A DNA stretch of 64,000 bases from Rhizaria sp. SCN 62-66 (Eukaryota), in NCBI GenBank assembly GCA_001724265.1, contig MEDY01000013.1:62001-126000 (forward strand), read 5' to 3'. Under the pieces are notes generated by a model that saw nothing but the letters and a program-made list of their open reading frames with translations, ran no database searches and was not told the origin of the DNA. Below, in pieces: positions 23,785-53,000 of the stretch (position 1 is the stretch's first letter; each line of letters opens with the position of its first letter). Both the position numbers and the translations under genes were made by a program.

Positions 23785-24684
23785 GCGCGAGTGCCGCACA
23801 AGAGCCCTGAGTTCAGCTGATAACTGTCCCGTCGCTGCGGCAGCAACCCAGTCAACTTGCACCGGAGAACTGACGCTCGCACTGTGAGGCTGCTGCTGCT
23901 GGTGCTTGGTGTGCTGGCTGTGGCCCACGCGGCCGTGGGTCGTCGAGGCGCGCACAGCCCTATACACGCCATCAGCGCCTGCTGTCGCGTCATGGCCAGC
24001 ATCCTCGTCGGAGTCGCCGCCGTCGTTGTCGTCGCCGTCGTGGGCATCACTGCGAGCTCCAGCGGCGACGTCAGCGTCGGCGTCAAAGTCGCCGTCCGCG
24101 GATATGTGCGACTGCGACTGTGAGAACGCGTGGCCGTGGGTACTGGGGAACGCAGGCGGCAACGGGCCGATCATCAGGCCGCCACTGTGCCCGTGCAAGT
24201 TACCGTGAGCACTGTGAGCAGAGTGACTGTGAGTCGACGAGACTAACTGGTTGCGCTTACTCTGAGCAGCAACAGCAGCAGCAGCTAAATGGCCGTGCAC
24301 AGCAAAGTGACGAGCGAAACCACTCGGACTCAGCGCAACAGGAGCAGACGCAGAGGCAGGAAAAACTTCAATACCACAACCACCAGCAGCAGCAGTCGCA
24401 TTCAGCTCAGCGCCAGGCTTCACGCTAGTTACTACCGTTGACGTTGATACCTATGGAGGCGGTGAGAAACGGCTTGCTTTGCCTTCCTCATGCTCTTCAT
24501 CATCGTCGTCGTCGTCAGCCTTTGCGTCCGCATACTTCACATCCGACTCCGTGTCACCACCAGTAGTGCGCTCACGCTTCCGGTTAGCGCTCTCGCGTTC
24601 ACCACGCGCGCGCCCGCGGCGATACTTCGCACCCATCCCCGCAGCGCCAGCAGCTGCATGGCCACCACCACCACCACCACCACT

Positions 24685-24727
<43 letters not shown>

Positions 24728-25158
24728 GCAGCAGCAGCGGCAGCGCTAGCAGCAAGAGTAGCAGCAGCAGAAGCAGAGGTGGTGGCGCGCATAGCAGAGC
24801 CAGCACGCGCCGCCACAACGTCGCTGCTGTCGGTGGCGCTACTGTTGGCGGCGCTGACGTTTCCTTCCTACGGCGGGGGCACGAGAGCAGAGTCTGGAAC
24901 GCGCCCCTCCGCAGTTGTCGCCTCAGACCGTGCAAGCGCCTGCGCTGCGACCATGGTCTCCGAGACAAGGGCGAGAAACGCGGTGTAATCGCTCGCGCCA
25001 GCGGCTTGCGCGGAGAGGGATGCAAGCAGGTGCGCATAGGGGGACTACGAGGCCGCGATGGCGTCGGCAGCAGCACTTGCATCGTCGTGTATGGTTGATG
25101 CTGTTGGTGTTGGCGTTGCGCGCGACCCACGCCGGGAGCGCGGGGCGGCAGGGTCCAT
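7765..25158 (-). CDS. Giant intronless F-box + WD40 protein (~5,797 aa if three in-frame TAGs are read as sense; otherwise the 5,552-codon ORF 7765-24423)
   Basis: F-box-like VLQCVLSFLRPEDLLRSVPRVCRAW (~23290-23375). Seven GH...W[DRSN] WD40 repeats at ~10070-11030 and ~7885-8360. The same frame continues from 24423 to ATG 25158 with only TAG interruptions (24451-53, 24868-70, 25045-47). Stop TAA. Confidence 0.8.
23748..23783. repeat. Imperfect (TTG)n trinucleotide tract encoding poly-Thr on the minus strand
   Basis: Directly visible ttgttgttg run inside the F-box/WD40 ORF. Confidence 0.85.
24660..24745. repeat. (CCA)n/(GCA)n trinucleotide tracts encoding poly-Gly and poly-Ala on the minus strand
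   Basis: Directly visible. It lies in the TAG-containing N-terminal extension of the F-box/WD40 gene. Confidence 0.85.
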
Positions 25159-25924
25159 TGCGCACAAAAGGAAGGCTAATGCGTGCGTGGATGGTGGATG
25201 GATGAAGTGTGTTCAGCGTGTGCTGAGGGAATGCGCAAGGGAAGGCAACGAGATGAAGAGAGGAGAGTCGATGGCGTGAGAAGAGGCACGATTATAAAGG
25301 GTTTGGCAGAAGGGTTAACGGGAAATATGTGGTTAGCACGGGACATAAAAATAAGCCACTTGTAGGCGAATCAAAACAGAGTTTGTTTGTGTTGGGGCTG
25401 TAGCTACGGCGGTGGATGGCCGCATTGATGGGCTTGACCCTTCCCTGTGAAGCGGTCACAGAGCGAGTGATATTACCTAGGTTGATCCGCAGAATCCGTC
25501 ATTGACAAAATACTCAGCGCGGCACGTTTCCCCTGTGCGGATTCGATATAATCCATTTGTAAAATTGCATAAAAACAGAGTATAGCGCGGTATTCGAGTC
25601 TTTTCGATCGATTTGTTGTCCGCTTCGATTGGTTGGTCACGAAGAATCTGCCTCGGTTCGCAAAAATTCGCCCTTGCAGTATTTTGGTTGAGGTAGTCGA
25701 CGTCGCTCGAGGTTTCTTTGCTCGACATCACATCATCCGCCAAATGGTGATTTAACTCGTGCCCCACTTAATATGACTTGGAAATACTCTATTTCTAATT
25801 TGGCCGGTAGCGTTGGTGCTGCTATGCCTTTATACATCCCATCTTGAAACCCCAGAGCACGTGATGGCCACTCAAAACGCTTCCCCCTTCTTGTCTCCCG
25901 CTTTGCGCACCCCTCCTTCTGCAG

Positions 25925-28563
25925 ATGCGCATTCGCACGGCCCTCGCGTGTTTGTCGCTGCTTGTCGCAGTTGCGCACGCCGCACCTACGCTGCAGTATG
26001 ACGCCAACGTCCGCCAGGTCTCGTTCCTGCTGCCCGTGACTCCTTCCCGTGCCGTCACTTTCACGCCTGAGATGACGCTCGCCGAGGTCCAGGCCGGCCT
26101 CCGCCTGCTCGGCGCCTGCGAGTTCGTCGACGCCGCGTCGAACACGCCCTCCAAGCTCTCTGTTGCCACCGAGACTGCGACCATCTACGACGTTCTCGCC
26201 GCGCACCGCACCGAGGAGCTCTCCCTCGCTGTTCGCTGCACTGGCGCCGCTGCCGACGGCTTCCGCCGCCTCACGGGCGCCGCCGTCTCCACCACCGCGG
26301 CGGGCGCGCCCGCCGTGACGTATCCCGTCACCCGCGGCAACACTGACTGGCGCGATGCGCTGAGTAAGGAGCAGGTTGACTCTGTGCAGCCGCTGATCGC
26401 GCGTTTCTACGAGTACGTGCGCGGCGCTCTCCCCGAAGGCAGCATTCCTGCCCGTGAGTACCCGTTCGACCTGATCGACTACCTCCACAACACGCTCGAC
26501 GCGTCGTGGAACTGGCTCATCACGTTTCTCGTCTCTCACTGGGGGGACCTGCACCCTTTCAACACGTACACTGGCAAGGATGCGGACACGGGCCTGTGGG
26601 ACCTCACCACTGGCACCCAGATGACCCAGGTATGTTCCCTGCCATATTTCACGTATCAGAACAAAGATGACATATCATAAGCTTATTTTTGTATGTAACA
26701 ATTCATACTCAAATTTTACTATCTAACGCTATCAATTGTCGAACTTCCTTTATCTTATACCTTCTCTGTCATTTATGCTATTTTGCGATCCAATAACAGG
26801 AGGCCTCTGCGAACCTCGCTGCCGCTGGCGCCGAGTGCTGGCAGCGCCACTCCGCCAACGGCGCCACACCCTCCCCGCGCGCCCTCGCCCAGTGCGGTGC
26901 TCAGCTCACCGGCGTCGCCGAGTCCAACGCCGCTGTCCGCCTTGCGCTCACCGCTGACTGGGGTTCCGGCACTGATGAGGCGCAACTCGTCAGCAATATG
27001 ATGATTAATGCGACCAAGCCGCACTATACGGTGCATATCGGCGACATTTACTACGTCGGCGAGGTTAAGGAGGTCCGCAGCAACGTGCTTGGCGAGGTTC
27101 CGTCCAAGAATGTGCGCAACGGCGTGAATTTCCACGCCGGCTCCCGCGGCATGTTCGCCTTCCAGGTCCGTTAAAAACTGAAAACAACGCTTAAAAGAAC
27201 AAATCCGCTGAATCGATTCATGATATGTAACTGTTTTCATCTTTTTATCTGGTATTTTATGTCTCTAATTCACTTCAAATTATCATCAAGATCCCTCAAC
27301 TGCTCTTGATAGCTCATCGTCATTTTGCTTTCATGTCGACGTATGTTTTTTTAGGGCAACCACGAGATGTACTCGCGCGGTTTCGGCTACTACGACCACC
27401 AGCTGCCCCGCTGCGGCGTCAAGGACCCCGCCTCTGGCAAGGCCCTCGGTCAGAAGGGCAGTTACGGCTCTCTCGACACGCCGTTTTGGCGCATTATCGG
27501 TCTCGACACTGGTTACAACACGTACAACCCCAAGGGCGTCCACTCGCCGGATAACAAGCAGCCCGAGGCCGTTGTCGCTTGGCTCAAGGACATCGTCCGT
27601 CTGACTGATCCCGCCGACCGCCGTGGTATCATCATCCTCACGCACCACCAGTACCGGTCCGCGTTCGAGGCCCAGTACCTCAGCACGCCCAAGCAGCTTG
27701 CGCAGCTTCTCGGTGGTCGTACCGTCATCTGGCTCTGGGGCCACGAGCATCACCTTGCGTGGTACGATCTCGGTAACTCGGGTGGCGTTGATGTGACGTG
27801 CTATGGCCGCTGCATCGGTGTCGGCGGCTTCCCCATTGATATCGTCAAGCTTCCCAAGGACGCGCGCGCTGGTGGCATCATTGCGCAGGTACGGCATCAT
27901 ATCTAGCGCTACAACAATATGAACCAGTTGCCTTTTGAAATTGTATATGATTCATCCTAGGCTTATTTTATGCTTATCTTTCTTTGTTTAAACTTGTTGT
28001 TTTTTGTTTTCTGCTCCACGCAGGACACTCGTGAGTACGAGGTTCTTGCTGGCTCCCTTGGCACTGTGCCGATTGGCTTTAACGGCTGGAACACCATCGA
28101 GCTCGTCGGCAACAGCGCCCGCGTCGATTACTACACCCTCGCAACCAACGGCGACTACCTCAGCCGCACTAACTTTACCAAGGTCGTCACGGAGAACTTC
28201 ATTGTCAACAAGGAGGGCTCCGTCGAGCTGACTGAGTTCACCGTGCTTGACAAGGGCATCACGGTCTACGATCATGTGGAGCGCCCCCAGCAGCAGCTGC
28301 GCACTCGCATGGCCACCAAGGCCCACGGCCACACGCTGCCACAGACGCTCGCCGCGCGCACCGCCGCTGGGATTGAGACAGACGTCGGTAACGGCTTCCA
28401 GAGCGAGGACCTGCGTGCTGCTGGGGTCCAGGACGTCTTCGCAGCTGATGATTCGACGCATTCGACGAAGAAGATGAAGACGCAGCAGGATGTGATTGAC
28501 AAGGCGTACGCCGAGTACAAGCGTCTCCACCCGGAGTATGTTGAGCCTCAACTCCCCATCTAA
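25925..28563 (+). CDS. Secreted calcineurin-like metallophosphoesterase; exons 25925-26629, 26800-27165, 27355-27888, 28024-28563
   Basis: Signal peptide MRIRTALACLSLLVAVAHA. The spliced product has all five metal-binding motifs: ALTADWGSG, HIGDIYYVG, FQ|GNHEMY, ILTHHQY and WLWGHEH. Three phase-0 GT-AG introns. Exon 2 is not shown in the correct frame in the ORF track. Stop TAA. Confidence 0.88.
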
Positions 28564-30898
28564 GGACCTCGTGGTCTCAGTCCCCGCCGAGCTGAATTGC
28601 GTTTCAACTCGGTACATGTATCTAAATATCCCGAGCGACCTCCACTTGCACTTAAACACGTACTGTACATAATCACGTGTAAGTGTACGCCGCGCGCGTT
28701 TATGGTACTTTGCTGTCAAGCTATTGCTAGCTACTCACCGGTAAGCCTTAAACTCTTCAAGTTTAGAGTGTGCAGTACAATATGCGTGTTGCTGTGCTTT
28801 GCGTCTCCTTTCATGTTTCTATTCTGTTCCGCCCCTTCCACCCTGTTTGTTCAATCATTTCCTCTTTCTTTATTATCATTTGACCACAAGAGTCTCTCCA
28901 TGTTCCAACGACGCGTCTATGTCCACAATCGCCCCCATCATCGTAATTCAGCAATAATAGTCGTAGTCACGATTAGTACGCCCGCTATGCAACAGCTGTC
29001 GATTCAATTACCATATTATGATAAACTTGTCGTCCCCGGCCTCATTGCACTTAAAAAACAACTAGCCAACTGTGGCATCGCTGCTATGCACAATTCCAAT
29101 ACACTTTTACTTTTCGACACATCCTTCTCCCAAACACTCCACTCGATTACATTCGAAGACTCGTCTGTCCGCGCCCGTGTCTTAAACGACATTCACCACG
29201 AGAGCATCTCCTCGCACATCTGTGGCTATGCAGTTCCGAGGCTAAACGACGATTATTGGTTTATCATGAATAAAACAGTGATCAAGTGTATTATTACTTG
29301 TTAGATATCGCATACATATGTATGTTATAGTCGTGGTAATAACTATTGGTTTAAGTTTTCTTCGTTTGTGGTTGCTCTTAGCGTGATGGGATGTTGCTGC
29401 TTCTGATCTCCTGTTGCGTTTCATGACATGCAACGCAAATAAAACAGAAGTGAGCCAGCAGTTAAAGGGGAACGACAAGGAAAACATGAGCGACATTTGA
29501 TTGCAGTGCGGCTGCAACACACAAAATAACACAACGCCAAAAACCCTATCAGTGCCTGGAACGTGGGTTTGCGCTGATTGGATGTTGGACTCGTAGAATC
29601 ACGTGTAGGACGTGTCGTTTCACTGCGAATAAAGGGCCAAGTGTCGGTCGTGCTTCGGACGTATGTGTCAAGACTAGAATCAGTTCGTTCGTTGTGGGGA
29701 AGTGTGGCTAGACACAGTTTAAACGTGTTGATGTGATTGCCAGAATCTTAAAAATAACATACAGAAGCACGGTGACTATTCGGCATATAAACAAAAACTA
29801 AACAAAACGGGACAGATAAGAAAGGCTTGCAGAATAACCGATAAACAAAAATGGCACGATGTGTAAACCTTGCTAACACTGATTTACGTAAGCGAGCCGG
29901 CGACAAGCGGGCGCAGCCAAAACGTTCGCAATGTTGACTAAGACATCATGATGAGTGTTATGTACCATGTACAAACTGCTGCGCAGTAGAGCTGCCAGTG
30001 TGCCAATAAGGCCAAATAGCTGACATAAGGTTCCGTGTACGCGTTATGTTGTAAAGTTTTGTCGTTATGCGTGAAACGAAGAAAACAAATGAAGGTGATC
30101 TTGTTGGCGTGGGGTAGGATGCAAGAACTTATAGCGTGTTGTTACAAAGGAAATAAATGAACTCTACGCGGCGCGTCTCCAAACGCAAGAGACACAGTCA
30201 GTGTGCATTTGCAACTGGGTGATACCGTGTAAAAGCAATGCCGACAAAGTTGGTAGGCGGTCAGGATAAAAAAAGATATGGCGGCCAAAAAGTGTCGCCA
30301 CAGACTGTCAAAACAAACTAAAAAAAATATACATGTACTCGGGGAAAACGTATAAAAAACAAAGCGATTGAGGAAGGGAGAGGGATGCCATTGGAAGTCG
30401 GAGGCTGAGATGATGTCACTTGTTTTAACGAGACCGAACATAGAAGAACGTAATCTAAGGTGCGCGAACAAACAAACGAAAACAAAAACAAACAAGAACA
30501 AAAAACAACAACATGCACTGGGGTTGCAATTTCCACACCAGGAGCACATAAACTACGCAAAATACAGAGCACAACAAACTGCTAGGACTGTGCACGGGGA
30601 GCATAAACTGAGAATACGAACTAATGTTACGAAAATAGACTGAGTGGAGGTGTCTGCGAAAAGAGACAGCGTCTCCACGAGCCACGCAGTTCAGAGATAA
30701 AAGCACAGAAATAAACACAATTTAAAAAAATGGAGCTAGAATAATGACTTGCTGTACAAAAGAAGAAAATGGACATAGAATATGTAAAACGAGAATCGAG
30801 AGGATCGAATTAATACGGGGGAGCCTAACGTAGAGCGAGCATGTGTTCACGAGCACAAACAAGTTTTACAACAGACTTGTCACGTCAGCTTCGTTGGT

Positions 30899-33800
30899 TT
30901 AGTCGGCGAGATCAGAGTGGTTAAGACTGAGCTCGGCGTTATTGTTACTACTGGGCATGATCTGAATCTGCAGCGGCAACGGTAACGGCAACGGCAATGG
31001 CATAATCTCCGGCGATAAAAGCTCCGGTTGCGTCAACACGCTACCGCCGTTAAGGCCGTGTCCATGCACTTGACTGTGCACTTGACCGTGACCGTGACCG
31101 TGACCGTGGCCGTGACCGGGATGGTGAACGGGAACAAGAACGAGTCCATGCGCAAGCGGCGTCCGGGAACGCCCGTGTGTGCGCGTGTGACCGTGCGCAG
31201 CAGCGGCGGCGTCATCGCTAAACAACAGTGCACCCGTATTGGCGCGTGTGGCCGTGTACAGCGACGGATATTGACTGTGAACGTGGCCGTGACCGTGGGC
31301 AGCCGAGTGACCGTGCGCAGCCGAGTGACCGTGAGCAGCCGAGTGACCGTGAGCAGCCGAGTGACCGTGAGCAGCCGAGTGACCGTGAGCAGCTGCCTGG
31401 AGACCGTGGGCTGCCGCAGGTGCAGAGAACATATACCCCATGCCCGGGCTCACAGTCGTGGCCACAGTGGCCGCCGCAAGCACATCCGCGGCCGCCAGAG
31501 CGCCGGCCGAAGCGGGGGCGTCTGAGGACGCGACGACGAACGAACTCGTTGACACAGCAGAACGGCTATCGGCAACGGGTGAGACAATCGTCGCCGCCGT
31601 GGGGGCATTGTTCAGACTGTACGCGACGACGGCCGCACCGTTGCTGGCCGCGATATCTGCGGTAGCTACATTCGCAGTCGCGGGAGCGATTACCGCGTGA
31701 GCATGGGAGGTCGCATCGACGCTACAGCCAGCGTGGCCAGACATCGCCGACATTGGCTGCTGCGACTGTGGCGACGCCTGTCTAGTGACAAGACCACTCG
31801 ACGTTGCGCTCATCACTTGGTGCACTACGCGGCCCATCGCCATGCCCCCGGGACTCAGCACTGCGGCGCGGTGGCCGTGCGCAGAGTGACCGTGAACAGT
31901 GACGGAGTGTCCGAACTTGTTCAAACCGAGACCTGACCCGCCAGCGGGGTTCAACGTAGTGGCTTCAGTGTAATGCGCCTGCGCTGACGTCGCCGTAACG
32001 CTCGAAGTTGACTTGGCGCTTGACCGGGAGACTGAGCTCGAGCTCGCCACAAACAGTGAGTCTGAGATATGCCCAGGCCCCACAGTCTCGGCCGCGGAGA
32101 GCAAGGGCTCGTCGGTGGCCGGCGCATTCGCAGCCAACATCTTACTGCTGACGACAACAGCAGCGGAGCCACCGCTGCTGCCGCTAAAGCTACTCCGGCC
32201 ACTACTGCTGCTACTACCGCTATTGTTACTGCTGCTGTTGCTGCTACTGCTGCTCCGACTGTGATCGTTGATACTCGCGGTGCTTGCCGTGAGCGCTGCA
32301 GAGCCCAGCGTGCGCTTGCAGGGTGCGAATGTCTTATAATACCCCACGACTGTCACGGCGACAGCGACGGCAAAGACGCAGACAGCGGCGAGAACGTAAT
32401 GCGAAAACATCCACGGCAGCCCGCCGCCGCCGCCGCCGCCGTCGCCGCCGCCACTGCAGGTGCGCGCGTACACACCGGACGCGCACCGCTGGAACACCAC
32501 GGGTGGGATCTCGATCGGGTTGATCGTGGGGAAGCGGCGTCGAAGCACCGACGACGGGTCCTTGACGTGGTCCGCGAGGAGCTTTGACAGAACCATGGGT
32601 GTGGGACGCGCGTTGTGGTGCAGCGGCCGAACGACAAGCGTGACGATAAACGCGTCTGGTGCGATCGCGATCGAGTCGAAGCGTGACAGAGCAATCCCCG
32701 TGCTTGCGACGACCGCGGTGACGAACGACGTGGCAAACGCGCGGAGAGCGGGCTCCCCGACAGGCCGGTTGCCGGTCATGGCGACGCTGAGCATCAGACC
32801 CGCGGCGGGATTCATCTGCAGCACGACATGCAGACCGTAGCCAACCGCCACAGAGACGTTACTACCGTCCGCGTTCGCCGCACCCGTCAGCTCAATCGCA
32901 CTACCGCCACCACAGTTCGCGGAGCGTGTCCCGTCGCCGGTGCGGTAACCGCTGATGTTGTTGCTGCTGTCATACACAATGGCCCCGTGGACGTCCTTAA
33001 GCCGCACTGGGTACTTCCCCGGCGCGCAAGTAGGCACACGCCGCGGTGTGATGCCCATTCCCACGTCGTACAGCGAGTCCGGCGTCACGAGTTCTTCGCT
33101 GGCGGCGTCAGTTTCACGGCACGCGCGCAGACGCACGCGAATCATGCTGCTTTCGGGGGCGCCGACGAGCTCTAAAGGGGCATCAAACGCAGTCGCGTTG
33201 CCGCTGTCCTGGCTGTGGTGGAGAGAAGCAGTCGAGGAAGCGTCGGTAGTCTCGCTGTAGTTCATTCCCGCCCCAAGAAGTTCCGCGGAAGCGACGACGG
33301 AGAGGTTGCCAGTGGCCCAGAGCGTATATACATCGCTGCTGCCAATCTCGACGACGTCGGGTGTAATGGTAGAGACGAAAATGGACGCCGGCGTGAGCGG
33401 AGTCGGTGTGATGTACCGTGTAATGGCGTCAAAACGTGCGAAACTGAGCGGGGCTTTGGCGTGCCCGAGGATCTGCACCCGTCCTGAGATGGCGCTACAC
33501 AGTGGCACACTTTCGTCAACCTCGAGACACACGCTGCCGCTGTCGATATTCGAGGGAGTGGGCGGGAAACGGCACCGGGGAAGGTCAAACTCGACACCCA
33601 TGCCGGTGCGGCGCGCTTCAGGCGCCATCCACGTGCCGACCTGGACTGCAACGGGCAGTGTAATGGGGAGATCGATGCCGAGCGTGACTGTGAAGTCTTT
33701 TTCGCACGGCAATAAGGGCGCGGGGTACAGCCTTCCGGGGGTGATAGGCTCGACGACCTCGATCTCACCGACAGCGACAATACCACCGTTGTTGTCGTTG

Positions 33801-35356: not shown

Positions 35357-36432
35357 AACCGGGGGATGCCGAAAACTACAAACGCTGCTCGCGCCAGCGA
35401 GACTGCACGGGAGAAATGGGGAAGCAAGGACACAGAAAGGAATCATAAAAAGAGGTTCTGCGACGCACTCAAAGGGGATATACATGCTTCCTGCAATCGG
35501 CACCATAAAAAAATATGAAACAAAACCCACTCTTACACCACTTAAAGAAGATAACATTCAATCATATCGACGGAAAGACCACCAAATATTGACGTTTAGT
35601 TGGCTGACATTCCCCTTCAGGGCTGCAATGACAATTTAGAGTTGCTGTCAGGCGCAGATTGACCGATGCCAGTGATGCTCCCGCATCACAGCTACATCCC
35701 CGAAAGTGTCGCTCAACTGAGCATAATTTAATGATGTTGTGAATCTTAGCCTAGAGTTCGTAGTTTAAAATGGGACACTTTTGGAAATTTTGCGGAGAGG
35801 TATTTGAACTCAATTATGTTGATCTTATTTTATAAACCTTGAATTTAGACAATGTTTATTTGCATTTAAGTTTTCGTCTCTGTCAATAGCCATGCTATGT
35901 AAACCGAGTCGATCTCGAAGATAAAGTCGCAGGTTCATTCATAGAATAGAACAGTAACACCGCGCATCCCTGTCATCTAACAGAAAACGAAGTTTTAACA
36001 AGGATAGCGCCACATATCAATGTAGGCGACCGTGAGGAAAACAACGTTGATATACTCATGTATCCCGCATGTCATCAGGGATATCACACAGTATAAACCC
36101 ATCTTGCGAGCTCAATGCGTATTCAACCAAACCAATTGGTGATTTCGAGCAATTGAACCTTCTGTAATAAATTACGCTAGCCATATATACGAAGTAAACA
36201 CAGTTTGAGAATCGCGGCAGACTGTTCAAACCAACATTCGGGACCATTCCTGAGCGCTCCGCGGATTTTCCGCCGACACAAAAGCGAATATTAAAACAAT
36301 TACATGAAATGGTATATCTGACCATCTGATTCGATAATCCGAAGGCGAAAACAAAGCGATATCATGTGAAAAACGCACTTTGTTCACAGCTAGCAGACGT
36401 GGACACGCACGCGCTGAATCATTGCGTTCAGC

Positions 36433-36708
36433 TCATGCGTCATCGTCATTACCGCCGGCAAGAGAAGCCAGGTACGCCTCGCGCCTAGCACGCCACCGCT
36501 CCAGGTTCTAATCGTAGACATCGAGCACGCAGCGCGCGCATCCCTCACCGCAGCAATCGCCGTCTTCTGGAGCTGAGGGGCGGCTGCCAACGGCTGAGCG
36601 CAGGGCGACGGGGTCGACGCCCAGAGAAGCCAGACGCGTACGGTCGGCGGACTCGTTAGCAGGGTCAAGTAGAGATGATGCATATATATCTTCGTCGATG
36701 ATAGACAT
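36433..36708 (-). CDS. Small Oxidoreductase-like N-terminal domain (OXLD1-type, CCxxGCxxC) protein, 91 aa with one in-frame TAG at 36508-36510
   Basis: PSAPEDGDCCGEGCARCVLDVYD-[TAG]-NLERWRARREAY matches the family pattern PxxP...CCxxGCxxCVxDxYxxxLxxW. The next stop is TGA at 36433-36435. Confidence 0.78.
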
Positions 36709-40156: not shown

Positions 40157-43100
40157 TCACATTTCATCGGAGACGACGGCGATGGGCGAGTACCGCGCAT
40201 CCGAGCCCCACTTGAGCCCGACAATCACACCGGCACCAAACAGAATCAGTCCCATGCCCAAAAACAGCACAAAGAATCCACCGGGCGTGTTGTACCACGC
40301 CACGCCAGCGTCTGCGTTCACACCTTTCCCCTTGCTTTTATCCATAGCAGCAACATTGCCACCTCCACTAGTGTTCGAAGCATTAAGAGCATCAGACTCG
40401 GCAAAAACGCCTGGCGACTGCATCGCGGGCTCAGCCGGCCAGTCACACTGATCGCCAACGCCGTCCCAGTGCTCTCGGTCCCGGTCCACCGCGCTTGCAG
40501 CGTCACCGGGGTGTTGCCGCCACCACCGCACCGCTCGGAGCCACCATGACGGGTAAAAGAGCGCTGACGCGTCAAACTCCGGTCCTGCGGGCGTCTCAAG
40601 CCGATATCCGTCGTGGTACTTGGTGATAACGCGCCAAAACAGCGCCCAGTACGCCGCAAACGCGCGCTTGGCCGCCATCTCACTGTGCGCCTGCAGAATC
40701 ACACTGGCGAAGTGGGCCGCCTCGGTGCGAGATCGAGCACGGCGCACAGTCGCCAATGCTCGGCTCAACGCCGCAGCGCTGTGGGCTGTCGCAGAGGCCA
40801 CGCGATCGGGGTCGGCCTCGGCGGTGGTGACAAGAGCGGCGGCGGCGGCGGCGACAGCAGCCTTGACCTCATCGATGGTCTCCTTGTCGCCATCGCCGTT
40901 AACGTTTGCGTTGGTATTGGCGTTGGGGTTTGCTTGCCAGTTGCTAGGACCGTCCACTGGAGCAGCCGCGACCGCCGCATGCAACGCCGTGGCCACAGCC
41001 TCGACCTCCGCGTCCGCGGTTGCCTCAAGTTCCATGCGCGTGACATCAATCTCGCGAGTCACGTGCTTCCACGCGCGTTCTGCGTAGTTACCCACGGCAC
41101 AAGCGACCCACCACAGCGAAGACTGGTCGAACCGGAACAGCGAACCCGTGGTCAGCGGCGCCGGCACTGGCCCCGGCGCCGCGGGGTAGAGCGGGACGAA
41201 GACGGACGTGCGGGGCTGATGCGGGGCCACCCAAGTGCGGAACAGTGCGGGCGCGAGCGTACTACTGGCACTTGCACTGGCGCTGGCGCTGGCACTGGCG
41301 GCGCTGGCAAAGTGGCCCTGAATCGGCATCGAACGCATTTCAGAGATCACGGTGTACGCAGTGCGGAAAAGCGAGATCGTGCGCTCAAAGTGGCCCGTTG
41401 CAAGCTCTTCCTCAGTCAGAGGCTCACCGTCACTCCGGTCTAAGTTATCCACATCGCCCTCAGCAGCCTGCGTGGCCAATACAGCGCGGGTGAACGCGGT
41501 GTCGCTGGAAGTTAAGCCGGGGGCAATGGGCGCCTGCGTGGCGTCGCGAGGCGCGGTTTCAGTCCAGAAGAACTCGGTTGCGCTCGTCCGCAGTCCCGGG
41601 GTGTTGGCGGAAGTGTAAGCAGTTGAACCGGAAGCGTACACAGAAGCAGTGCTCAGGCTCGCTCCAGGAGGCGCATCGACCGCGTTTGCGCTCGAACCAA
41701 CAGCAGAACTCACAAGTGAGCTCAACGCAGAGCTGGAAGTGAAGCTCGTAGGGTTAACTGCGGGGGTACTCGTGCTAGAGCTCGTGCTAGTTGTCATGCG
41801 TTCGCGGTTGCGCCGGCGTTTGAGCTCAGCGGCAAGCGGTGTCGCACCATACGCATCATACCGGTTCGGGTTACCAAAGGGGCCGGCTGCAAGACCCGTT
41901 GTCGTGTCATAAGGAGTGCCTTCGAAGTGGTCACGGTGCACAGCGCGCAGATCAGCGACTGTGACCGGGCGGTCAGGCTTGACCGAGAAAGGCAGTTCCC
42001 AGGAGGACAGCGACGCTGAGAGGTTAAGCGAGGGCGCTAAGAGAGAGAAAACACGCCACGTGCGGCGCGACACGTAGGGCTCCTTGTAGATCGACTGTGG
42101 GTAGCCGTAATGTTTCTTCCAGTCTAAGGGGCCGTCTAAGGGTCCTTCGCCCGTGACATTACCCGACCACAGCCCGGCGCGCTTCGCCACCGTAAAGATG
42201 TTCTCACTGGCCATCCACCACTCACCGTCGCGCGTCTCGGGCGGCGGGACGCGGCGAATGCGGAACGTGTTCGTCAGCACAGTCACGTGGTCGTCTGGTA
42301 CGCGCTGTGCAGCCCAAACGGCGCTGGCGCCTGTGTCGTCAGGGCAGACGTGGAACACCCAGGCTTCCTTGTTATCAGTGATCGTAAACGCCTCGCCGCC
42401 CTCGACAAAATCATCCGGCCCCCATGCCGCGGAAAACATGCCATATCGCTCCGCGAGAGCTCCCAGATTGCGGACGGCTTCGCGGGCTGATCGACTGCGC
42501 TCCAGCGTGATGCGGGTGAGTTCACTGGCTTCGAGCAGGGCACGACCGCCGGCGTAGACGGGGGCGGCGACGAGACGGGCGCCGCAGGTGGACTCGCCGA
42601 TCGCGACGCCGTGCTCGTTGCTGATGCCGTAGGAACCGTCCAGGTAAGCGTACGTGTGCGGGACCTGTGGAAGAAACAACAAAAAGCAAGATTTCACAAC
42701 ATATGTGTTAGCTTGAAAGATTAAATCTCAGAAATGCATTATAAAATAATAAATTAAATAGAAATACACTTGTTTTGCTCGAATCAGAGTTAACATGTGT
42801 GAATGTGATTTGTTTCTCTGTTTTGTTGAGCAAAGTGAACGTGCCTGGGGGATGTGTCCGACGTGGTCGCTCTCAGTCCAAGGATAAATGGTACCGTCAA
42901 CCTTGGCGCGCGAAAACGCGGGTCCGCGGTCATTGCCCACGTAGCGCGGGTACGAGTATCGCATGGGCGGGATGGCGCGCGTCGCATTCGCTCCGTGTGT
43001 CGCTGCAGGAACGCGGAGGATGCGGAAGTCGCAGTCGTAGCAGTCGTCCGCGTGCGTGTTCAGAGTGCCGCCACGCAGTGTGGCGCGCGCGCCAACGGCG

Positions 43101-43213
43101 ATCGCAGTGCAGCGGTCCTCGGCAAGCGCGAGTGGCACGGTTAGGGCTGCGACGGCGAGCGCCAGAGCCAGCGACAGCAGCGAAGCCACTTGGTACGGCC
43201 GACGGGTCGACAT
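40157..43213 (-). CDS. Peptidase family C69 (dipeptidase A/secernin-like Ntn hydrolase) with signal peptide and C-terminal TM helix; exons 43213-42845, 42664-40157
   Basis: Signal peptide followed by CTAIAVG (nucleophile Cys), then YPRYVG, IPQ|VPHTYAY, NEHGVAIGESTC, WAAQRVPDDHV, RDHFEGTPYD and GPFGNPNRY. TM GFFVLFLGMGLILFGAGVIVGL. One GC-AG intron. Stop TGA. Confidence 0.88.
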
Positions 43214-44183
43214 CGCTCTTAAGCGGTCTAGAGCACTGATCTCGTTGTTTATAAAAGAGATGCGGAACTACTAAAATTAATCAAACGTGGATAAGGCGAA
43301 TTCTACATGATAGATGTAAAGGATGTAATTTGGTGAGACTAGGACGTGATTAGTGGTTGGGTCTGGGAGGGGGTGGAGTTGACTGCGACACGTGCTTCTT
43401 TATGAAGCCAACAGAAAGGTGAAATGACACGCTATGCAAGTATAATTAAAGGACCGTTTCAGAACGCACACGGTATATTACAATATCAAACCTATTTCGG
43501 TCTAGTACATATGGGTACGAAGATATGCTCTCAGCAAGGTTGTAGATGACGAGGTTGCCCGGTCGACCGAAAAAAGGTAGCTGGTTGGGCGCTGAGAGAG
43601 TTCAACTCCTCACAAAAGTCAAGATACAACAACCTTCCAAGCGTGAGATAGAGACCGTCTTTTTCTGGAGTCAGAGACTGTGAACCATGGTTTGATTCTT
43701 TGTTTTCTTTCAAGCTACAGGTGCCTACAATCACTCGACATTCCCCGGTTTCTCCGACTACTGATGCTCCCTGGCAACGTTGTGTATCTCACATCAACTA
43801 TGCCCAGTCTACGTAGCTTTCTAACGGATATAGAAACAGCAGTGCGACTCTGACATTATCCATGCTTATCAGATTCTACATTTGTTGCTTATTCTTCTTA
43901 ATTCCTTGATGTTACCCCACAATTTACGCCTTTTCTCCCATCCGGCCCCTTTCTCACCGCTCGCTCTTAACTTCCCCATGCGTTCATCAACCACACACGC
44001 CGACAGTGTTGTTGGGCGTTCTCTGCAGCCTCCAACAAACACCGCCCGCGCTTTTCACACCACAGCGTTGGGTTTTCCTTCCTTCCGTTGTCCGTCGCTC
44101 ACGCCGCGTGACAACTACGACAACAACCACAAAACAAAGCAGTTTCCTTCACGACTTGCTTCGTTGCATTCGTATTGTGCCCA

Positions 44184-47100
44184 ATGATGCCCGCCCTGTC
44201 GTCGCCCGCTGCTCTCCGCGCCTCGCGCGCTACTGCGGCCAGTTTTTTGCTCCTCCGTGCTCTTCTGGCCACTCTCGCACTTTCCGCGTCTCTCCTCGTC
44301 CTCTCGTCATCGTCGTTCTCCCCCATGACTGGTGCTGATGCGGCTGCGCTCTCTGCGCGCGCCACGACTTCTACCTTCGCCTCTGCGGTCGCTTCCCTTG
44401 CGGTCAACAGCTCGGGCGCGTCGGACGTCTCTCTGTCGACCTCTGTGGCACGTGTTGCCCCTTCCAGCGCCAACCCGCAGAGCTTCAACGCTTACTACAC
44501 CGACTCGAACTTAGCCGACATCCAGTGGGCGAACGATAAAGTTCTTTTCATGCTCACGTTTGACTCACGCTGCTACCGTTCCACCAACGGCGGCCGCTCG
44601 TGGGAGGATGAGCAGGCGGATATGAACGCTGTGGGCGTCCGTATCAGGCAGATTCGCATCTCACCGCATGATCCCAAGGCGATCTTCTTCCTCGGTGAGC
44701 ATGGCCACCACATTGCCACTCGGTACGATTATTCGCATATATCTAAGCAAGATCATTGGTCAATTCGCTATATATTTTAGTATTTGTTTTAATACTTCGT
44801 TAATCATGTTGATTTAACATATTGCTTTGATTATCTCACATCTATGCCGCCATATATCATCGCTTTCTCTCTGCTTTGAACTTAACCGAACAGCGATATG
44901 GGTGAGACCTACTACCCCGTCGTCTTCCCCCTCGTCGAGGTCCGCCTCCACCCCACCCAGCACTGGCTTTTGGGCGCTGTGATGACCCCTGGCTGCGGCC
45001 GTGCGGCCCACCCGTCTGACCCGGCTCTGTACCCCGACTACGCCATGCAGCAGCGGGTTCAGGTATGTTGAGATATAATTTAAAATTACACAAATTCGTA
45101 TCTATCCCGCTAAATGTGATGTTAAATTGCGTGATTACTTAATGAAATCATCAGTATTCTTGCGATCGATGTATTAATTAACTTTTGATATCAACACTCA
45201 CAATGTACCAATCTTTGTTGTTGACTTTGATTGCATTACTTAGTCTGCGTGCTTCAAGCAGCTGTTCGTGTCCAAGGATTTCGGCAAGTCATGGAAGCAC
45301 CTCTACGACTACGTTGTGCAGTATGACTGGTCCCCTAAGGGACGCGAGGCTGTCCGTTCTGGCCCCGCGAAGAAGCGTGGTGCCAAGAAGCCGATCGAGG
45401 TCATCTATGCCACGGTCCACACTGTCCGCACTGGCCACCAGGTACGTGTCGATACCGTAACATCTAAGAATGATACCTAAGAACGATACCTCACTCTGTT
45501 TCATCGAATTTTTCTATGATATCATGCATTTCTATTATGTATCTACTTTAGTCAAGTTTTGATTCTGAATCGAGTATTCTTGTGCTCATGTATCACTTGT
45601 TTTGTTTTTGTTTTGTTTTGCTATAGGTGTTTGGCAAGTGGAACCCCAACGTGAACCTTGTTGTCTCGTACGACTTCTTCTCCACCGAACCCGACATCCT
45701 CGTCGTTGGCGGCAACCGCTTCCTTTTTGGCGAGAATAATTATTTCTTCGTCGCCGCCGGTGACGTCGGTCAAACCCCCGATGGCGGCTCCACGGGCACT
45801 GGCAGTGCTAGTTCAGTCCGCCTGTACGTCTCTAAGACCGCGTCGGTTGACAAGGAGGGCTCGTTCCGCCAGGTCATGCTTCCCGTGTCTTTGACGGAGC
45901 ATTCGTACACCATCCTGGACTCGTCTGAGGGCACCGTGTTCCTGCATGTCAACCACAACCCTTTCCACGACAACGCTAAGGCCGGCCACATCTACATTTC
46001 CGACTCGACCGGCACACAGTTCGCGATTGCGTTGGCGTATAACCACCGCGCACAGTCTGGCAAGTGCGATTTCGCCAAGCTTGAAGGGCTGGAGGGTGTG
46101 TTCCTTGCCAATTTCATCGATATGGACGGTGACAACAACGTACGTCTTCACGTCATTCAGAACAAAACACGAAATCATTGAGATTTGACGCAACATATGT
46201 TGATCTAATGATTCAATGTTTCGTTTTAAATAGTGTATCAACGTGTACATCTTTATTTAATAATTCAAGCTCAAAAGTCATTCATATATCTTGTCAAACT
46301 CTTCTTTTTTTGTAGGGTGGCGCGACGTCCGAGGAGGACCGCGACGAGTGGCGCACCCGCGGCACCCGCCTCGCCGCTCCGAAGCGTCTCAACACAGTCA
46401 TTACGTTCAACAAGGGCGCTTTGTGGGAGTACCTCCGTGCCCCTGCGAAGGATGCTGACGGGAACGACTACCACTGCTTGCCTGATAACGGGTGCCACCT
46501 CCATTTGCACGGTGTTACGCAGGGCTTCGGGCCGTTTTACTCTGTTGCATCTGCCACGGGTCTGATCCTTGCGACCGGCACTGTCGGTTCCTACCTCAAC
46601 TCTGTCCCCGGGCTGATCAACACTTATTTCTCCCGCGATGGCGGCTTAACTTGGGAAGAGATTGCCAAAGGCTCGCATATTTATGAGATTGCCGACCACG
46701 GTGGCCTCATCGTCATGGCGACTGACCAGGCCCCGACGATGTACTTGTACTACAGCTGGAACCAAGGTCAGACGTTCCACAAGTACAAATTTACTGATGC
46801 TCCCATTGTTGTTGAGAATATCATCACCGAGCCATCGTCAACCTCGCAACACGTCATTGTCTACGGCTCCGCTGAAGTCATCGGTGCTTCTCAGAAGCAA
46901 CCCCACGCCGGCTCTGGCGTCGGCGTCGTTGTCTACGTGGATTTTTCGGTCCTGCGCACCCGTGCCTGTGAAGGCATCGACGCCGCTGGTTCATCTCACA
47001 GCGACTACGAGCTCTGGTCCCCGAATGACGGCCGCAGCGAGGGCGCGTGCCTCATGGGCCACACCACGACGTACGTGCGCCGCAAGCAGGCCAGCGAGTG

Positions 47101-47947
47101 TTATATCCCGCAAATGGCGCAGAAGCCGCGCCTCGTGGCTAACTGCGCGTGTACAGAGGCCGATTTCGAGTGTGACGCTGGGTACGTGCGTGATGTGACC
47201 ACGAAGCAGTGCGTTCCTGACTTGGACGCCGAGACCGTGATGGTCGACGCCGCCACCGACGCCCGCAAGCGTTGCGAGACGCAGAGTTTCTACCGCGCGA
47301 CCAAGGGTTACCGCCGCGTGCCCGGGAACACGTGCCTCGGCGGCCAGGAGTGGGAAGCACTCGTGGTCCCATGTCCCAGCGGCTGGCTCTCGGCGTCTCA
47401 TTCCCCGGCCGTCGTACTATTGATCGTCTTCATCATCGCATTCGCGGCCATCGTCGTTTTCCGCATGGATTATGCCGACGACCTTATCCGTGCCTTGAAG
47501 GCCCGGTTTAACATCGCGCAGGGCTATTTCAAGGTTGGCGTCCCCGGGTCCGCCCCGGCTAGTATGGCTGAGGACGACGGCGACGGCGACGGCGGGGAGA
47601 CTGACCCGCTTTACCTGGACGAGTCTGAGTTTGAGTCTGTGCGTACGCTCGACGCTAAGGATATCCGCGCTCTCCGTCACGCCGCCGCAGCCGCCGCTAG
47701 TAAAGTCGGTGGCAGCAGCAGTGGCAATAGCAGTCACTTGAACGCGGGCGATCTCTCGCTTGAGAGTGACTCGGATGCTGCACGCGTGTCACGTGTTACC
47801 TCGCAACAGCAGTCACAGGTTCCCGCACAGATGCACCCGGCGCTGGCCGCCAAGGCCAAGGCGCAGGCCCAGGCGCAGGCGCAGGCACTGGCGCTTCAGC
47901 AGCAACGAGGGGGACTGCCGTCGCTGCAGCCGCCGCCCCAGGAGTGA
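44184..47947 (+). CDS. VPS10/sortilin-family sorting receptor; exons 44184-44722, 44894-45063, 45244-45441, 45627-46139, 46316-47947
   Basis: BNR/Asp-box repeats (YRSTNGGRSW, FVSKDFGKSW, YFSRDGGLTW, YSWNQGQTF), CHLHLHG, and a 10CC Cys-rich module (CLMGH..YVRRK, CACTEADFECDAGY, GYRRVPGNTCLGG), followed by a TM helix and acidic tail. Four GT-AG introns in frame. Stop TGA. Confidence 0.92.
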
Positions 47948-48720
47948 AGCGACACACAGTAAAAGTGACAACCTTTAACTGGGATCGTGTGAAAAACCCC
48001 ACACGCCTTATTTGAGGCTTGGGAGAGATTATATTGCTTGCATTTTTCTCTTGGTTTGTGCTTGTGTTTGACGTGTAAGCTGGTTGTTGTTTTTTCATTT
48101 GTTTGAGTTTGTGAACGAACTAGCTATGGGTTGCGACTGACTGGCCAGTTTGTTGCGTTGTTAGCCACATGCGTGGTAATCTTGTTGATGTGAATGCCAA
48201 AGCGATGGCAGCTTAATAAGATTGTCTTAGCTGCATGTAATCTTCACAATTTAATGCGCATACGAGTATAATGAGTAAAATATTGAAGCAACAACAATAC
48301 AGTGTTACTTTTCATCATCTCACTTCGTAAGCATCACATCACATTCAAGAAAGCTTTGTTCAGTCTTGTTACATTCTTTGATGCTGTATTGGTGATTTTA
48401 TTTTTTTAATTCCCAACAGAATAAGGTTTTGATTTATGTCACTGTGTAGTCAATTGATATCCATTATGTAGATATAATAGTGTGCATCTGCTGATGATCG
48501 GATCAGTGGCAGCGAAAGATGTTCATGTGTGTTTTGCGCAAGCAAGCTAAAAGTTAGCCAGCACAGCAAGCAAGTTGAAACAAGTCAGACCCATTCCACA
48601 CATTAGGTCGCGAGAACACGTTCGCTGAGACGAAGTGTTTTGAGTCTCGTCGAAGCCTCGGTGTATCTAAACAAAACGTGCGTACTTAGAGAAGAGATTT
48701 ACAGTTGTTCAACAAGGAAC

Positions 48721-49693
48721 TTACATAGCGTAGCGCTTGGTCCACTGGCGCGCGCGCTCGTCGTGAAGGGCCTTGTCGGACTTGAGCAGCTGCGCAATCT
48801 CCAGCACAAGGGGATCCTCGGGGTTGGGCTCGGTGAGGAGCGAGGAAATCATGAGGAGCATCTTAGGCACAGTGAGAATGGGGGACCACTCGTCCTTGAG
48901 GAACGAGACGCAGATCTGACCATGCTCGTTGATGTTGCAGTGGTAGATCTTGGTCTCAAACTGGATCTTGGGGGCCTTGAACGGGTAGTCGGTGGGGAAG
49001 TTCATGGTGAGGAAGAAGACACCACCGGCGTAAGGGGAGCCAGCGGGGCCGGTGATCATGCAGCGCCACGAGAAGAGGTCGTTGTCGACGGGGCCGGCGG
49101 AGATGTTCTCCGGGGGCTGAACAAGAGAAAAAATGACATGGATGCAAAACGAATAAAATAAAGAGGAGATAAGTATGGGTGAGGTCAAAAGTATTTTAAA
49201 GCGCTGTAGGGTTGAGAGGAAGCACGAGGAGACGAGCTTTCGCATGCAGAATCGGGAAGAAATAAGAAACATATGATAAAAGGCGTCCGCGAAATAAGGA
49301 ATACTAAGAGGCATAAAATAAACGTACGTCACGGGTGATGTCGGTGAGCTCCTGGAATAGGACGAAATGATGGCAAAGAGGGGAATGGTAGAGAGATAGG
49401 TGAGAAGATGGGGAACAGTAGGGCGATGCTAATAGGCCATTATGAGAGGACAAAACCATAACCCGGGGCGCGGATAGCGCACAAAGAAAGGGGAGTGGCG
49501 TGGTCTTAATCATGAATCAAAGGAAATCTCGAGGCAATGGACGGGGAACGCAGACCAACGTGATGACCGAGCAAGCTAGACCACAACTTCGCGAAAAGTC
49601 CAGGTTGTCCACGGAAGGCCAATCAGCCATTAAATCTACTCGGCACGTCAATCGTAATAAAACACGTACCTTCTGAAGACGCTTCAAAGCCAT
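48721..49693 (-). CDS. Ubiquitin-conjugating enzyme E2, UBC4/UBE2D-E-like, 147 aa; exons 49693-49670, 49351-49328, 49116-48721
   Basis: Spliced [25 protein letters not shown]...PYAGGVF...DYPFKAP...[12 protein letters not shown](active Cys)...WSP...EPNPEDPL. Both introns are GTACGT...CAG. Stop TAA. Confidence 0.93.
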
Positions 49694-50080
49694 TTTGTAA
49701 AGATTAAGACTGTAATGTCTAGTTCTTCGCACTCAACTGATGACTTTGAGATCAGATCAAGGGCGCCCAGTCGGACTCCTCGGTCGGTCGGTCGATCGAC
49801 CGAACAATCCAACCACGACTTTTTTTCGACTACAACCTTCGAGTCGGTTCGTGAAAAAGCGGCTGGAAGACAAGTAACCACCGTACCCTCATATTATAAG
49901 CGTTCCTCTCACCAATCCAATTCTGTTTGAGTTATAATTACACGGACTAATGTAACATAATAGTACTTATAAAGAAATGCTATATCATATGTAATGACGG
50001 ATGTTTGACCTTGATTGCCGCTCATTTTCTGTCCGCCCAACGACTCTCACCCTCCTCTTGTTGCAGTGCAAACCACACAG

Positions 50081-53000
50081 ATGAGCCACGACCCTGGCTC
50101 CAAGCAGGGCTCTGGTCTCCTCCCACCCATTTTTGGACCACAAGCCCCACCCTTGTCCGCCCCCTCCTACATCACAGCCTCCCCGACCCTGATGGCCACC
50201 TCATCCTCGTCCGAGCCCGCGCCGTTAGCAGCCTCCACAGCGTTCTCCGCCACTGCAGCGCCCTCCATGACGGCCGCCGCGGACCGCGACGTCTCCAAGT
50301 CTCTTCTTCACGCAGTACTTCCGCCCCCGCGCACTGCTGCGGGTTTGTTAGCAGTTTCCCGAGGCTTTCCACGCCGCGCACACGCCCGCACGCGCGCTTT
50401 GCTCGCTGCAACGGGCGACGAATCGTCAATTTCCGCCCCAATCACCACCAGCAGCGCTCACGGCGACGGCAACGGCGACGGCAACGGCGACGGCGACGGT
50501 GGTAACGCAACGCCGCAGGTGTTTCTCGGTGTGCATTCGCTCATCGATCCCCATGCATCCTCCGCTCGCCCCTACCCTTCCTCTGTCTCCACTGCTGGGA
50601 ATGCGAATAACGGTTACAGCATCAACCGCTCCGCGCGTCCCCGCATCCCCGCGCTAGTTGACCCATATCTGCTCGCGCCCCTGCGGCCCTCGGAGCACTA
50701 CGCCCCCGCCATCCCGGCCGATGAGGACGTTCTTCTCGCGTTTCCGACCACGTACGGCCTCGCCGCAGCCGCCGCACCAGCTCCCGGCGCGCCCACTGGG
50801 GCGCAGATTGCACTCGAGCGCGCGCGCCAGCGCCGGCGGGTGGAGCGGCGCTGGGAACTCGCCGCCGCCGGTCTAACCGAACCGCTGCCTGTCGCTAACT
50901 TTGCATCAGTCCGCAGCACTGCCAGTGGCATCGATACACTCGGGAATCATCATAGCAGCACGGCTGCGCTCGGGGGTGGGCTCGGGGAGACGGACGCTGA
51001 GATTGCGCGCCGCAGGGCTGATGCTGCGGCGGAAAAGCAACGGCGCGAAAGTCAAGCCGCGTGGGTTGCTTCACTGTCCGCCCGCAGTGGTATTAATAGC
51101 AATAACAATAACAATTACCGTAGTATCACTCGTGGTGAAACTGAGAATGTGAAACGTGATGAGATTGGTGTTGCTGCGAGGCTCGCGTTGTCTGTTCTTG
51201 CACCAGCGTTGTTGGCTGAACGGCGCAGGCCTTCTTTGGGGCCACAAACTGCGTATACACTACCTAGCAGTGGCAGCGCTGACGCACGCGTGAGAAGTAA
51301 CCCTCTCGCGTTAACTGGAAATGGTGATGATAAGATTGATGATGACGACAGTTCTGGTGTTGCAGCTGCGTCTGCCTTTAGCGACCCGATCCGTGATGCT
51401 CAAATCCTCGCTGCAGCACGACAACTTGGATTACTCCGCGAACTTGCACTCTTAGCCTCTAAAACCACAGCTAAGAACACGCTTACCACGGACAACTACG
51501 AAAGTCCCCAGAGTGTGTCTCTCGGTTTGGGTGACCCCGCTCTAGCTGCGGCCGCAAAGGCGGCTTTGGAGGCTGGCCATGCGCGCGCTCCTCCCGCTGC
51601 CCCGCGCATGACGAGCGCCGTCATCAACAACATCAGCATCAACGACAGCGACGACAACGACGACTTCGACTATGCCGCCGACGATGACCTCGACGACGAT
51701 GATGATGACGACGACTGTAATAGCGATGGCAACGACAGTTCTGCTCTTGAGATGACTGGTCGCGATATGCGCGCGAGCCTCGACTAGTCCGCCGCCGCCC
51801 GCCGCCGCGCGCGCCGCCACCAAGCGCAATGGGAACTTCGCCAGCGGCTCGACCCCCGCGCCGCGCGCGCTGCCCGCCGCGCCGCCGCGCGCGCCGCCGC
51901 CGACGCCGCCGCTGAGGCAGCCGCCGCCGGCACGCTTGCCGCTGGCGCTGGCACGGGGGACGAAGCAGCTGTGGTAGCACTCCTGGCCTTGCTTCACAGG
52001 GCGATGGCGGGGTTTTCGCTCACATCTGCTGGACTCAACAGCAACAACAACATTAGCGCTGGCTCGGGCGGCAACAGCAGGGGCCGGCGCGACAGCGTGT
52101 ACGGCGACCTCCCCGGGGCCGACGCCGCTGCGGCTGCGGCGGCCGCGGCGGAGGCCAAGGATGCTGCGGCGGCGCTGGCGGCTGACGCTGTGTTTGGCGC
52201 AGGCGGCACAAGTGCTCTCGCAACAGCGGCTGCGCGACAGGCCGCCGCGGTGGCTGCGCTAGCGAGCTCCGGCGCCTTGCGGCTGCAGGATAGCGATGAC
52301 GAAGCCAATAACGCGCTTAACAAGGAAAACGCTGCCAACGCTCCTGCTGCTGCGTCTGCACCGCTTCTGGCTGCACTAGCATCAGCCCCATCCGTGACCG
52401 TAGCCGCAGCTGCTACAACAGCGTCTGCACGTGATGCTACTGTGACGGCCGTTGCGGGTACTGAGGAGGAGCAAGAGGCTGCTGCAGCCGCGGCTGCTGC
52501 AGCCGCGGCTGCTGCGGCGGCGGAGGCTGAGGCTGCTGCGGCCGCCGCTGCAGATCCGCTAGCGTCGCTGCCTCTGTTAGCTCTACCTACACTCACATCT
52601 TTCTCGCGGCAGGTACGTTGACAAAGAAATCATGATTTCATATCACATATATTAAATATGGTTAAGTGAGTTGTATCTCACATTTTCTATTTCATTTGTT
52701 ACTCGTATGTTTTTTGCTCTCCGAAATATAGGGTGATTTGAGCTTTTACTCCCCACAAGCCCTGGTTCGTCGCCAGCTAGCTGCGTATGCCGCGCCTTTG
52801 GCTGGCGTTGCGCAGCTCTGGTGGCGCACCTCAGGCAAACGCGCATCCGCGCCCGCGCCCACCGCTACTAACGACGACAACGTTGACAACAACGAAGACG
52901 ACGAAGAAGATGAGAACAACAACGACGAGGACAAAAATAGCAAGAACGCTGAGACGTCTCCCCGCGATCCAACTCCGACTGCAACTGCAGATAAAGCGAC

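Follow-up and report, generated by a model that had tools for sequence, protein, structure and literature searches.

The window analyzed here, 64,000 nucleotides (64 kilobases, kb) of contig MEDY01000013.1 (Rhizaria sp. SCN 62-66), carries five TAG codons that lie in frame within three genes, and these sites are best explained by a UAG that codes for an amino acid and is not used as a terminator. We regard this reading as probable, although 64 kb cannot prove it. An initial annotation of the sequence had proposed such a code, with UAA and UGA kept as stops and UAG likely standing for glutamine; the first part remains the best account of the window, whereas the preference for glutamine finds no support over glutamate. 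All five TAGs were recovered at the positions and in the contexts that the annotation had given (flanking residues in one-letter code):

25045-25047, minus strand: TAG1 of gene A, codon 38 from the ATG at 25158, AAS(TAG)SP
24868-24870, minus strand: TAG2 of gene A, PPP(TAG)EG
24451-24453, minus strand: TAG3 of gene A, PPP(TAG)VS
36508-36510, minus strand: TAG of an oxidoreductase-like gene, inside a conserved domain, VYD(TAG)NLERW (CTA on the plus strand)
51785-51787, plus strand: TAG of gene C-D, SLD(TAG)SAAA

The corresponding gene models, followed by the alternative that the standard code would impose on the last of them, are as follows (a slash marks an exon-intron boundary):

7765-25158, minus strand: gene A, a giant F-box/WD40 gene with long low-complexity inserts, TAG taken as sense; ATG at 25158-56, stop TAA at 7767-65
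36433-36708, minus strand: oxidoreductase-like (PF09791) domain gene, 91 codons, TAG as codon 67, stop TGA at 36435-33
50081-52612, plus strand: exon 1 of gene C-D, TAG taken as sense; frame open across the TAG at 51785
52613-52731, plus strand: intron of gene C-D, 119 nt, AT-rich, CAG/GTACGT...ATATAG/G, phase 0
52732-61254, plus strand: exon 2 of gene C-D, 2840 codons, no Pfam family, stop TGA at 61252-54
50081-51787 and from the ATG at 52004, plus strand: standard-code alternative, gene C followed by the first exon of a gene D

Both giant genes (7765-25158, ~5800 codons; 50081-61254, ~3680 codons) consist mostly of low-complexity sequence rich in Ala, Ser, Thr and Asn. To score frame signal, we compared codon usage in frame 0 with that in the highest-scoring of the five remaining frames, as log-odds; the training set excluded gene A, codon runs were collapsed, and scores were gauged against 500 dinucleotide shuffles wherever a shuffle count is given below. 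The claim of the initial annotation that coding-like sequence continues beyond each TAG was borne out by this measure, same-frame scores being positive in every case, from +6.9 to +65.7 bits. The four TAGs other than the one at 36508 rest on codon usage, the homologue search having covered gene C and returned none.

Judged by sequence comparison, the TAG at 36508 is the strongest of the five sites and the sole one in a conserved domain with homologues. The 66 residues encoded before it scored 30.1 bits against PF09791 (profile positions 7-31 of 46), and the product with the TAG entered as X scored 43.8 bits (profile positions 7-43), a gain of 13.7 bits contributed by 12 residues; the truncated and the read-through scores both exceed the curated cut-off of 24 bits. 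A HMMER search for homologues returned 266 matches at E <= 0.001, and column counts were taken from the best 150 of these, products of the window itself excluded; 149 of the 150 aligned. Within this set, the TAG column was crossed by 148 of the 149 aligned homologues, and the columns that come after it held L in 119, E in 78, R in 77, and W or Y in 82 and 57 of 147 sequences, respectively. The query reads L-E-R-W after its TAG, which is the family consensus. Cysteines C52, C53, C57 and C60, invariant across 148-149 homologues, are all present in the query. PDB chain 7zm7_o aligns straight across the TAG, and so does the nearest homologue, protein P0004 (423 amino acids, from a contig of 49,896 bases), with 55% identity over 53 residues; a word-index search with the small gene product retrieved only the product itself and one homologue of 52 amino acids. 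The small gene shares with the oxidoreductase-like family (PF09791; PDB 7zm7 chain o) a CCxxGCxxCV.D.Y core and the L-E-R-W helix, and is unlike it in carrying a TAG in mid-domain, where the aligned column varies and is acidic for the most part (E/D/Q). An in-frame UAG within conserved coding sequence, with homology running on in frame behind it, was found at this one site (36508-10), and the 24 codons past it scored +6.9 bits in the same frame (6/500 shuffles).

That this TAG is not an assembly slip follows from its recurrence. Contig L001 is identical to the window over 34888-37250, TAG included, the truncated product of 66 amino acids is present on seven contigs, and the TAG is kept in a second strain, present in run X4 (record 10). 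This strain, ~0.3% different, shows six differences from the window over 35182-37354, none of them at the TAG, and the single one inside the coding sequence (36628) falls by our count at a third codon position.

The TAG column at 36508 is also the single informative column in the window for the residue inserted at UAG. It held E in 62, D in 28, Q in 20, R in 12, A in 9, L in 6, T in 4, K in 3 and M in 2 of the 148 sequences from the best 150 of 266, and T in the nearest homologue, P0004. With 62 E to 20 Q, and T in the nearest homologue, the proposal of glutamine is unsupported over glutamate. Glu and Gln may reasonably be taken as the leading candidates, and Leu less so.

In gene A, the standard open reading frame (ORF) occupies 7765-24450 (5561 codons, ending in TAA) and is limited upstream by TAG3, whereas the same frame with TAG left open extends to 25212. 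An F-box-like domain was found at residues 598-627; the C-terminal half holds WD40 propellers, which are interrupted by very long inserts. The three TAGs sit in 235 codons, and the stretch from TAG1 to TAG3 scored +62.9 bits for the frame of the 5561-codon ORF (0/500 shuffles), with +19 bits between TAG1 and TAG2 and +26 to +34 bits between TAG2 and TAG3, again in that frame. The first in-frame ATG of the standard ORF lies at 24174, 92 codons downstream of TAG3; across these 92 codons no sense frame but the coding one is open, the others being interrupted by 5-9 stops each, and the coding frame is favored by +25.5 bits (1/500 shuffles). A standard-code start after TAG3 would thus leave out sequence that is open and coding-like. 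GC-rich sequence sets in at the ATG at 25158, and no AT-rich island was found between 23490 and 25291. Neither a frameshift nor a TAA or TGA was found in the part of the gene that holds the TAGs. Since 1.0-1.7% of the possible single changes in this region create a stop, three stops acquired by decay would, by our arithmetic, imply that about a quarter of the sites had changed, yet the frame and codon signals are intact; neutral decay of a former N-terminus is thus unlikely.

In gene C-D, the frame past the TAG at 51785 stays open for 275 more codons to the end of the exon (51788-52612) and scored +65.7 bits (0/500 shuffles). From sequence, the intron at 52613-52731 is predicted to join this frame to the 2840-codon ORF at 52732-61254; it overlaps an AT-rich island (52581-52760), and its donor is of the type seen in the other introns. 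The initial annotation had missed this intron and ended its model at a TGA (52619-21) that sits within it. Two options are left for the TAG itself, namely a single gene C-D of ~3680 codons with one TAG, or the stop of a gene C and the start of a gene D in the same frame. The 217 bases between the TAG and the ATG at 52004 favor a single gene, since they are GC-rich (80%, with a minimum 60-nt GC of 0.65), unlike the AT-rich cores found elsewhere. The 568-residue product truncated at 51785 is present on four contigs. Read joints near 51712-51877, with sides of 20-24 letters in repeat-rich sequence, were taken as foreign or repeat artefacts.

The composition of the non-coding parts of the window provides the background for this comparison. 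All of the 14 tested stretches between coding blocks, whether spacers or introns, contained a 60-nt core with a GC of 0.15-0.32; the minimum was 0.65 in the supposed spacer after the TAG at 51785 and 0.52 in the supposed leader of gene A. Nine introns read from sequence were all AT-rich and 110-210 nt long, seven with donors of the G[T/C]ACG type and the other two with GTATGT and GTCCGT. A GC-AG intron is among the nine, and the one in the C69 peptidase gene seems to be of this kind (CAG/GCACGT). The intron donor is unusually fixed as G[T/C]ACGT, with GTACGT in most introns. The introns placed in the window are:

~1583-1762, approximate, by eye
27166-27351, approximate, by eye
27889-28023, approximate, by eye
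42667-42846, approximate, by eye
44730-44892, approximate, by eye
45063-45249, approximate, by eye
45445-45626, approximate, by eye
46140-46315, approximate, by eye
49117-49327, boundaries set
52613-52731, boundaries predicted from sequence

In agreement with the initial annotation, which had described the flanks of the TAGs as lacking an AT-rich intron signature, no AT-rich core was found after the TAGs and no donor-like hexamer with an AT-rich run nearby. Near the TAGs of gene A and at 36508 there was no such combination, and near the TAG at 51785 the only one was the real intron at 52613. No spliceosomal intron with an AT-rich body, a G[T/C]ACG donor and a YAG acceptor was found to cover any of the five TAGs.

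Splicing was seen directly in RNA for the intron of the E2 ubiquitin-conjugating (UBC) gene at 49117-49327, in wastewater run X12 (depth 84.8). This gene (48376-49509) is the only one clearly seen as spliced RNA, and the organism was thus transcriptionally active in at least one sample. In RNA runs X6 and X12, depth was 0 over 35502-36835, and among the pieces listed none crosses 51785, which carries no weight either way. One contig (42510-42908) from run X6, labelled as poly(A) 'RNA', crosses the known intron of the C69 peptidase gene unspliced, and X6 may thus hold DNA or precursor messenger RNA.

By our own tally of terminal codons, which equals the count of the initial annotation, the 12 genes of the window end in TAA (seven) or TGA (five) and none in TAG. 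The tally merges the intron-joined blocks 1-1638 and 1702-2748, as read from sequence, and also 6198-7262 with 3251-5302, a merger that is probable. No other coding-like ORF in the window was found to end in TAG, and none of the 12 genes ends in a TAG beside an AT-rich spacer.

A number of observations weigh against UAG being a sense codon. The reading rests on five sites in three genes, or five TAGs in ~17-18 thousand codons (~0.03%) spread over three of 12 genes, and widespread use of UAG, as in the described codes, was not found in the window; the other long ORFs (5561, 2840, 1552, 994, 856, 825 and 683 codons) contain none. Three of the five TAGs fall within 235 codons of gene A and none in the next 5561, which is not expected of a uniform rare codon. 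At the same end of gene A, the 37 codons from the ATG at 25158 to TAG1 lacked a distinct frame signal (-1.7 to -6.6 bits), 24537-25175 is open in a second frame as well, and an exact look-up in the protein collection of six ORF products lying between the TAGs gave no match; the gene A TAGs, moreover, rest on this single assembly. In the GC-rich parts, off-frame and antisense frames commonly run for 200-700 codons without a TAA or TGA while holding 1-9 TAGs, so that an open frame alone means little. Random nonsense changes here would yield TAG 52-58% of the time, which makes the restriction to TAG weak evidence. The stop tally is a small sample of 12 genes and depends on two TAGs being read as sense; the argument from missing TAG terminators is thus partly circular, because under the standard code two genes (the oxidoreductase-like gene and gene C) would end in TAG. 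Finally, ARAGORN and Rfam found no transfer RNA (tRNA) gene in the 64 kb window, and Rfam gave no other match; the eRF1 gene does not lie in the window either.

A first alternative is the standard code, with three unrelated coincidences behind the TAG sites: the oxidoreductase-like gene would carry a recent, fixed nonsense mutation and be truncated or dead, gene C would end at 51785 and be followed in the same frame by a separate gene D starting at 52004, and the GC-rich stretch above TAG3 would be an untranslated leader or the relic of a former N-terminus. Two of ~13 genes ending in TAG would then be an ordinary share, TAG is the commonest nonsense outcome here, and ~15,000 codons of long ORFs contain no TAG. 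The conserved parts of gene A (the F-box at residue 598 and the WD40 repeats) all lie downstream of its three TAGs. For gene C, two separate genes are favored by the weak signal in the first 72 codons after the TAG, up to the available ATG at 52004 (+5.0 bits, 32/500 shuffles), and by the protein search, in which gene C matched nothing other than its own truncated product and which thus gave no tie between the C and D parts. The standard code, however, needs three separate oddities in 12 genes. It leaves the 12 residues past the TAG at 36508 still fitting the family consensus, and, ahead of the first ATG in gene A, 92 coding-like codons that are open in the coding frame only and covered by no standard start; it provides no AT-rich core after either TAG, in contrast to 14 of 14 spacers or introns with one; and heavy divergence, as three leader stops by decay would imply, has left no frameshift, TAA or TGA. 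We consider the standard code unlikely. The related view that the TAGs lie in leaders or introns, or in frames open by chance in GC-rich DNA, was dropped for gene A and the oxidoreductase-like gene because of the Pfam, homologue, codon-usage, composition and donor results, and is partly viable for the TAG at 51785. Start-codon contexts did not discriminate between standard-code models and models with TAG as sense.

Less probable still is a UAG that acts as a leaky or context-dependent stop, through programmed read-through or an ambiguous stop/sense code that yields short and extended products. The codon is very rare and confined to three genes, the three TAGs of gene A stand early in an ORF of 5800 codons, where failed read-through may be cheap, and codes with ambiguous stop/sense codons have been described from other eukaryotes (e.g. 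10.1101/2022.04.12.488043). The five contexts met in the window are TAG TCC, TAG GAA, TAG GTA, TAG AAC and TAG TCC, and no gene in it uses TAG as the final stop before an AT-rich spacer. A read-through context of plant viruses is UAG CAR YYA, which none of the five resembles. That the TAGs never reach the ribosome, being spliced out, edited in RNA or introduced by assembly error, appears highly improbable. The contexts CCGCCGTAG/G and CCTCCATAG/G do resemble a pyrimidine tract followed by an acceptor, and real acceptors here often end in TAG; yet the nine introns are AT-rich, 110-210 nt long and have donors of the G[T/C]ACG type or close to it, and nothing of the kind lies near a TAG. In addition, homology is ungapped on both sides of the TAG at 36508, which is also present in assemblies made independently and in another strain, and the stop at 51785 recurs on four contigs. 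Splicing and editing are rejected here on sequence grounds only, because the RNA contigs give no cover at 36508 and 51785.

If UAG is indeed a sense codon, it would be decoded by a tRNA with the anticodon CUA, derived most simply from tRNA-Gln or tRNA-Glu, and eRF1 would have lost its recognition of UAG or had it weakened. At ~5 occurrences in 17-18 thousand codons, UAG is rare, as it would be if the reassignment were young or its decoding inefficient and the codon were tolerated chiefly where constraint is low and near the start of very long ORFs. We tentatively raise the possibility, which we hold to be well short of probable, that the window represents an early-stage, UAG-only reassignment, in which UAG has gone as a terminator and is only starting to reappear, chiefly where constraint is weak, as a rare sense codon for Glu or Gln. 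Such a genome would be a living codon-capture intermediate, and its lineage would lie apart from the groups with recorded UAG-only codes (ciliates, fornicates and sainouroid rhizarians).

Few nuclear codes reassign UAG and keep UAA as a stop (Panek et al. 2017, PMC5304391; McGowan et al. 2024, PMC11687900). The former paper describes UAG-only codes in the rhizarian exLh (UAG=Leu) and in Iotanema spirale (UAG=Gln), and reports for exLh 384 in-frame UAGs in 71 genes, which end in UAA (56) or UGA (15) and never in UAG. The window resembles exLh in that UAG alone occurs in frame, UAA and UGA are kept as ends and none of the tallied genes ends in UAG; it differs in that exLh has abundant UAGs aligning to one residue at many conserved sites, versus five TAGs and one informative site here. 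The Leu of exLh fits the TAG column at 36508 poorly (6 of 148), and, as a further difference, the genome behind the window is GC-rich. McGowan et al. found UAG to stand for Leu or Gln in phyllopharyngean ciliates by mining metagenome-derived assemblies, with internal UAGs in 78-91% of genes, UAA as the dominant stop, suppressor tRNA genes, and UAG as a minority stop before its reassignment. These ciliates and the window would have in common that UAG alone is recoded, in metagenome-derived DNA, and differ in that internal UAGs occur in 78-91% of the ciliate genes as against three of 12 here. In our judgement the window is not ciliate-like, given its GC-rich exons, its contig of at least 64 kb (a contig of 136,669 bases carries one of its proteins) and its introns of 110-210 nt. 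A limited literature search found no paper on a UAG code in an activated-sludge protist.

Because all of the described cases use UAG widely, they say little about how a reassignment starts. If the reading proposed here is true, a UAG used as sense at ~0.03% of codons and never as a terminator would offer a view of an early or weakly established reassignment. It would be a new case of a UAG-only code with unusually low codon usage, possibly the mark of an early stage, and would show such a change in a genome of high GC, where TAG should be retained as a stop more easily than TAA. In practical terms, gene prediction with the standard code will cut short or break up genes of this organism, and the products of 66 and 568 amino acids are already present in a public protein collection.

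The window as a whole is eukaryotic, with GC-rich coding blocks (55-70%) divided by short AT-rich spacers and introns, and nearly all of its DNA recurs in metagenome runs on bioreactors and wastewater that belong to several studies dated 2015-2025. Its source is an uncultured, GC-rich, intron-poor eukaryote of such metagenomes. The genes that could be named are:

sortilin/VPS10 receptor
Alg9-like mannosyltransferase
C69 peptidase
E2 ubiquitin-conjugating enzyme
IPT/TIG protein
metallophosphoesterase
giant F-box/WD40 protein (gene A)

In the protein collection, the sortilin closest to that of the window is P0153, 73% identical and encoded on a contig of 8257 bases; an atlas search confirmed the sortilin and gave nothing further. 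P0153, P0168 and P0004 were the nearest relatives' proteins found for products of the window, and P0153 and P0004 point to a related organism in public data. For the DNA of such relatives, a metagenome scan with the TIG protein (1552 amino acids) returned only L001, a contig of 2363 bases identical to the window, and two genome-contig scans (with the TIG protein and P0004) and one viral-contig scan gave no match. A 2.3-kb stretch at 28564-30898, ~41-48% GC, is unusually long as a spacer in so gene-dense a contig; no convincing ORF was found there in any frame, nor a Pfam or Rfam match. The run X4 strain differs from the window at ~0.3% of sites within 33501-53500 (a reported total of 58 differences over 20 kb, of which 40 are itemized), with many of the differences falling in spacers and introns, and population data of this kind could serve for a synonymous/non-synonymous test across the TAGs.

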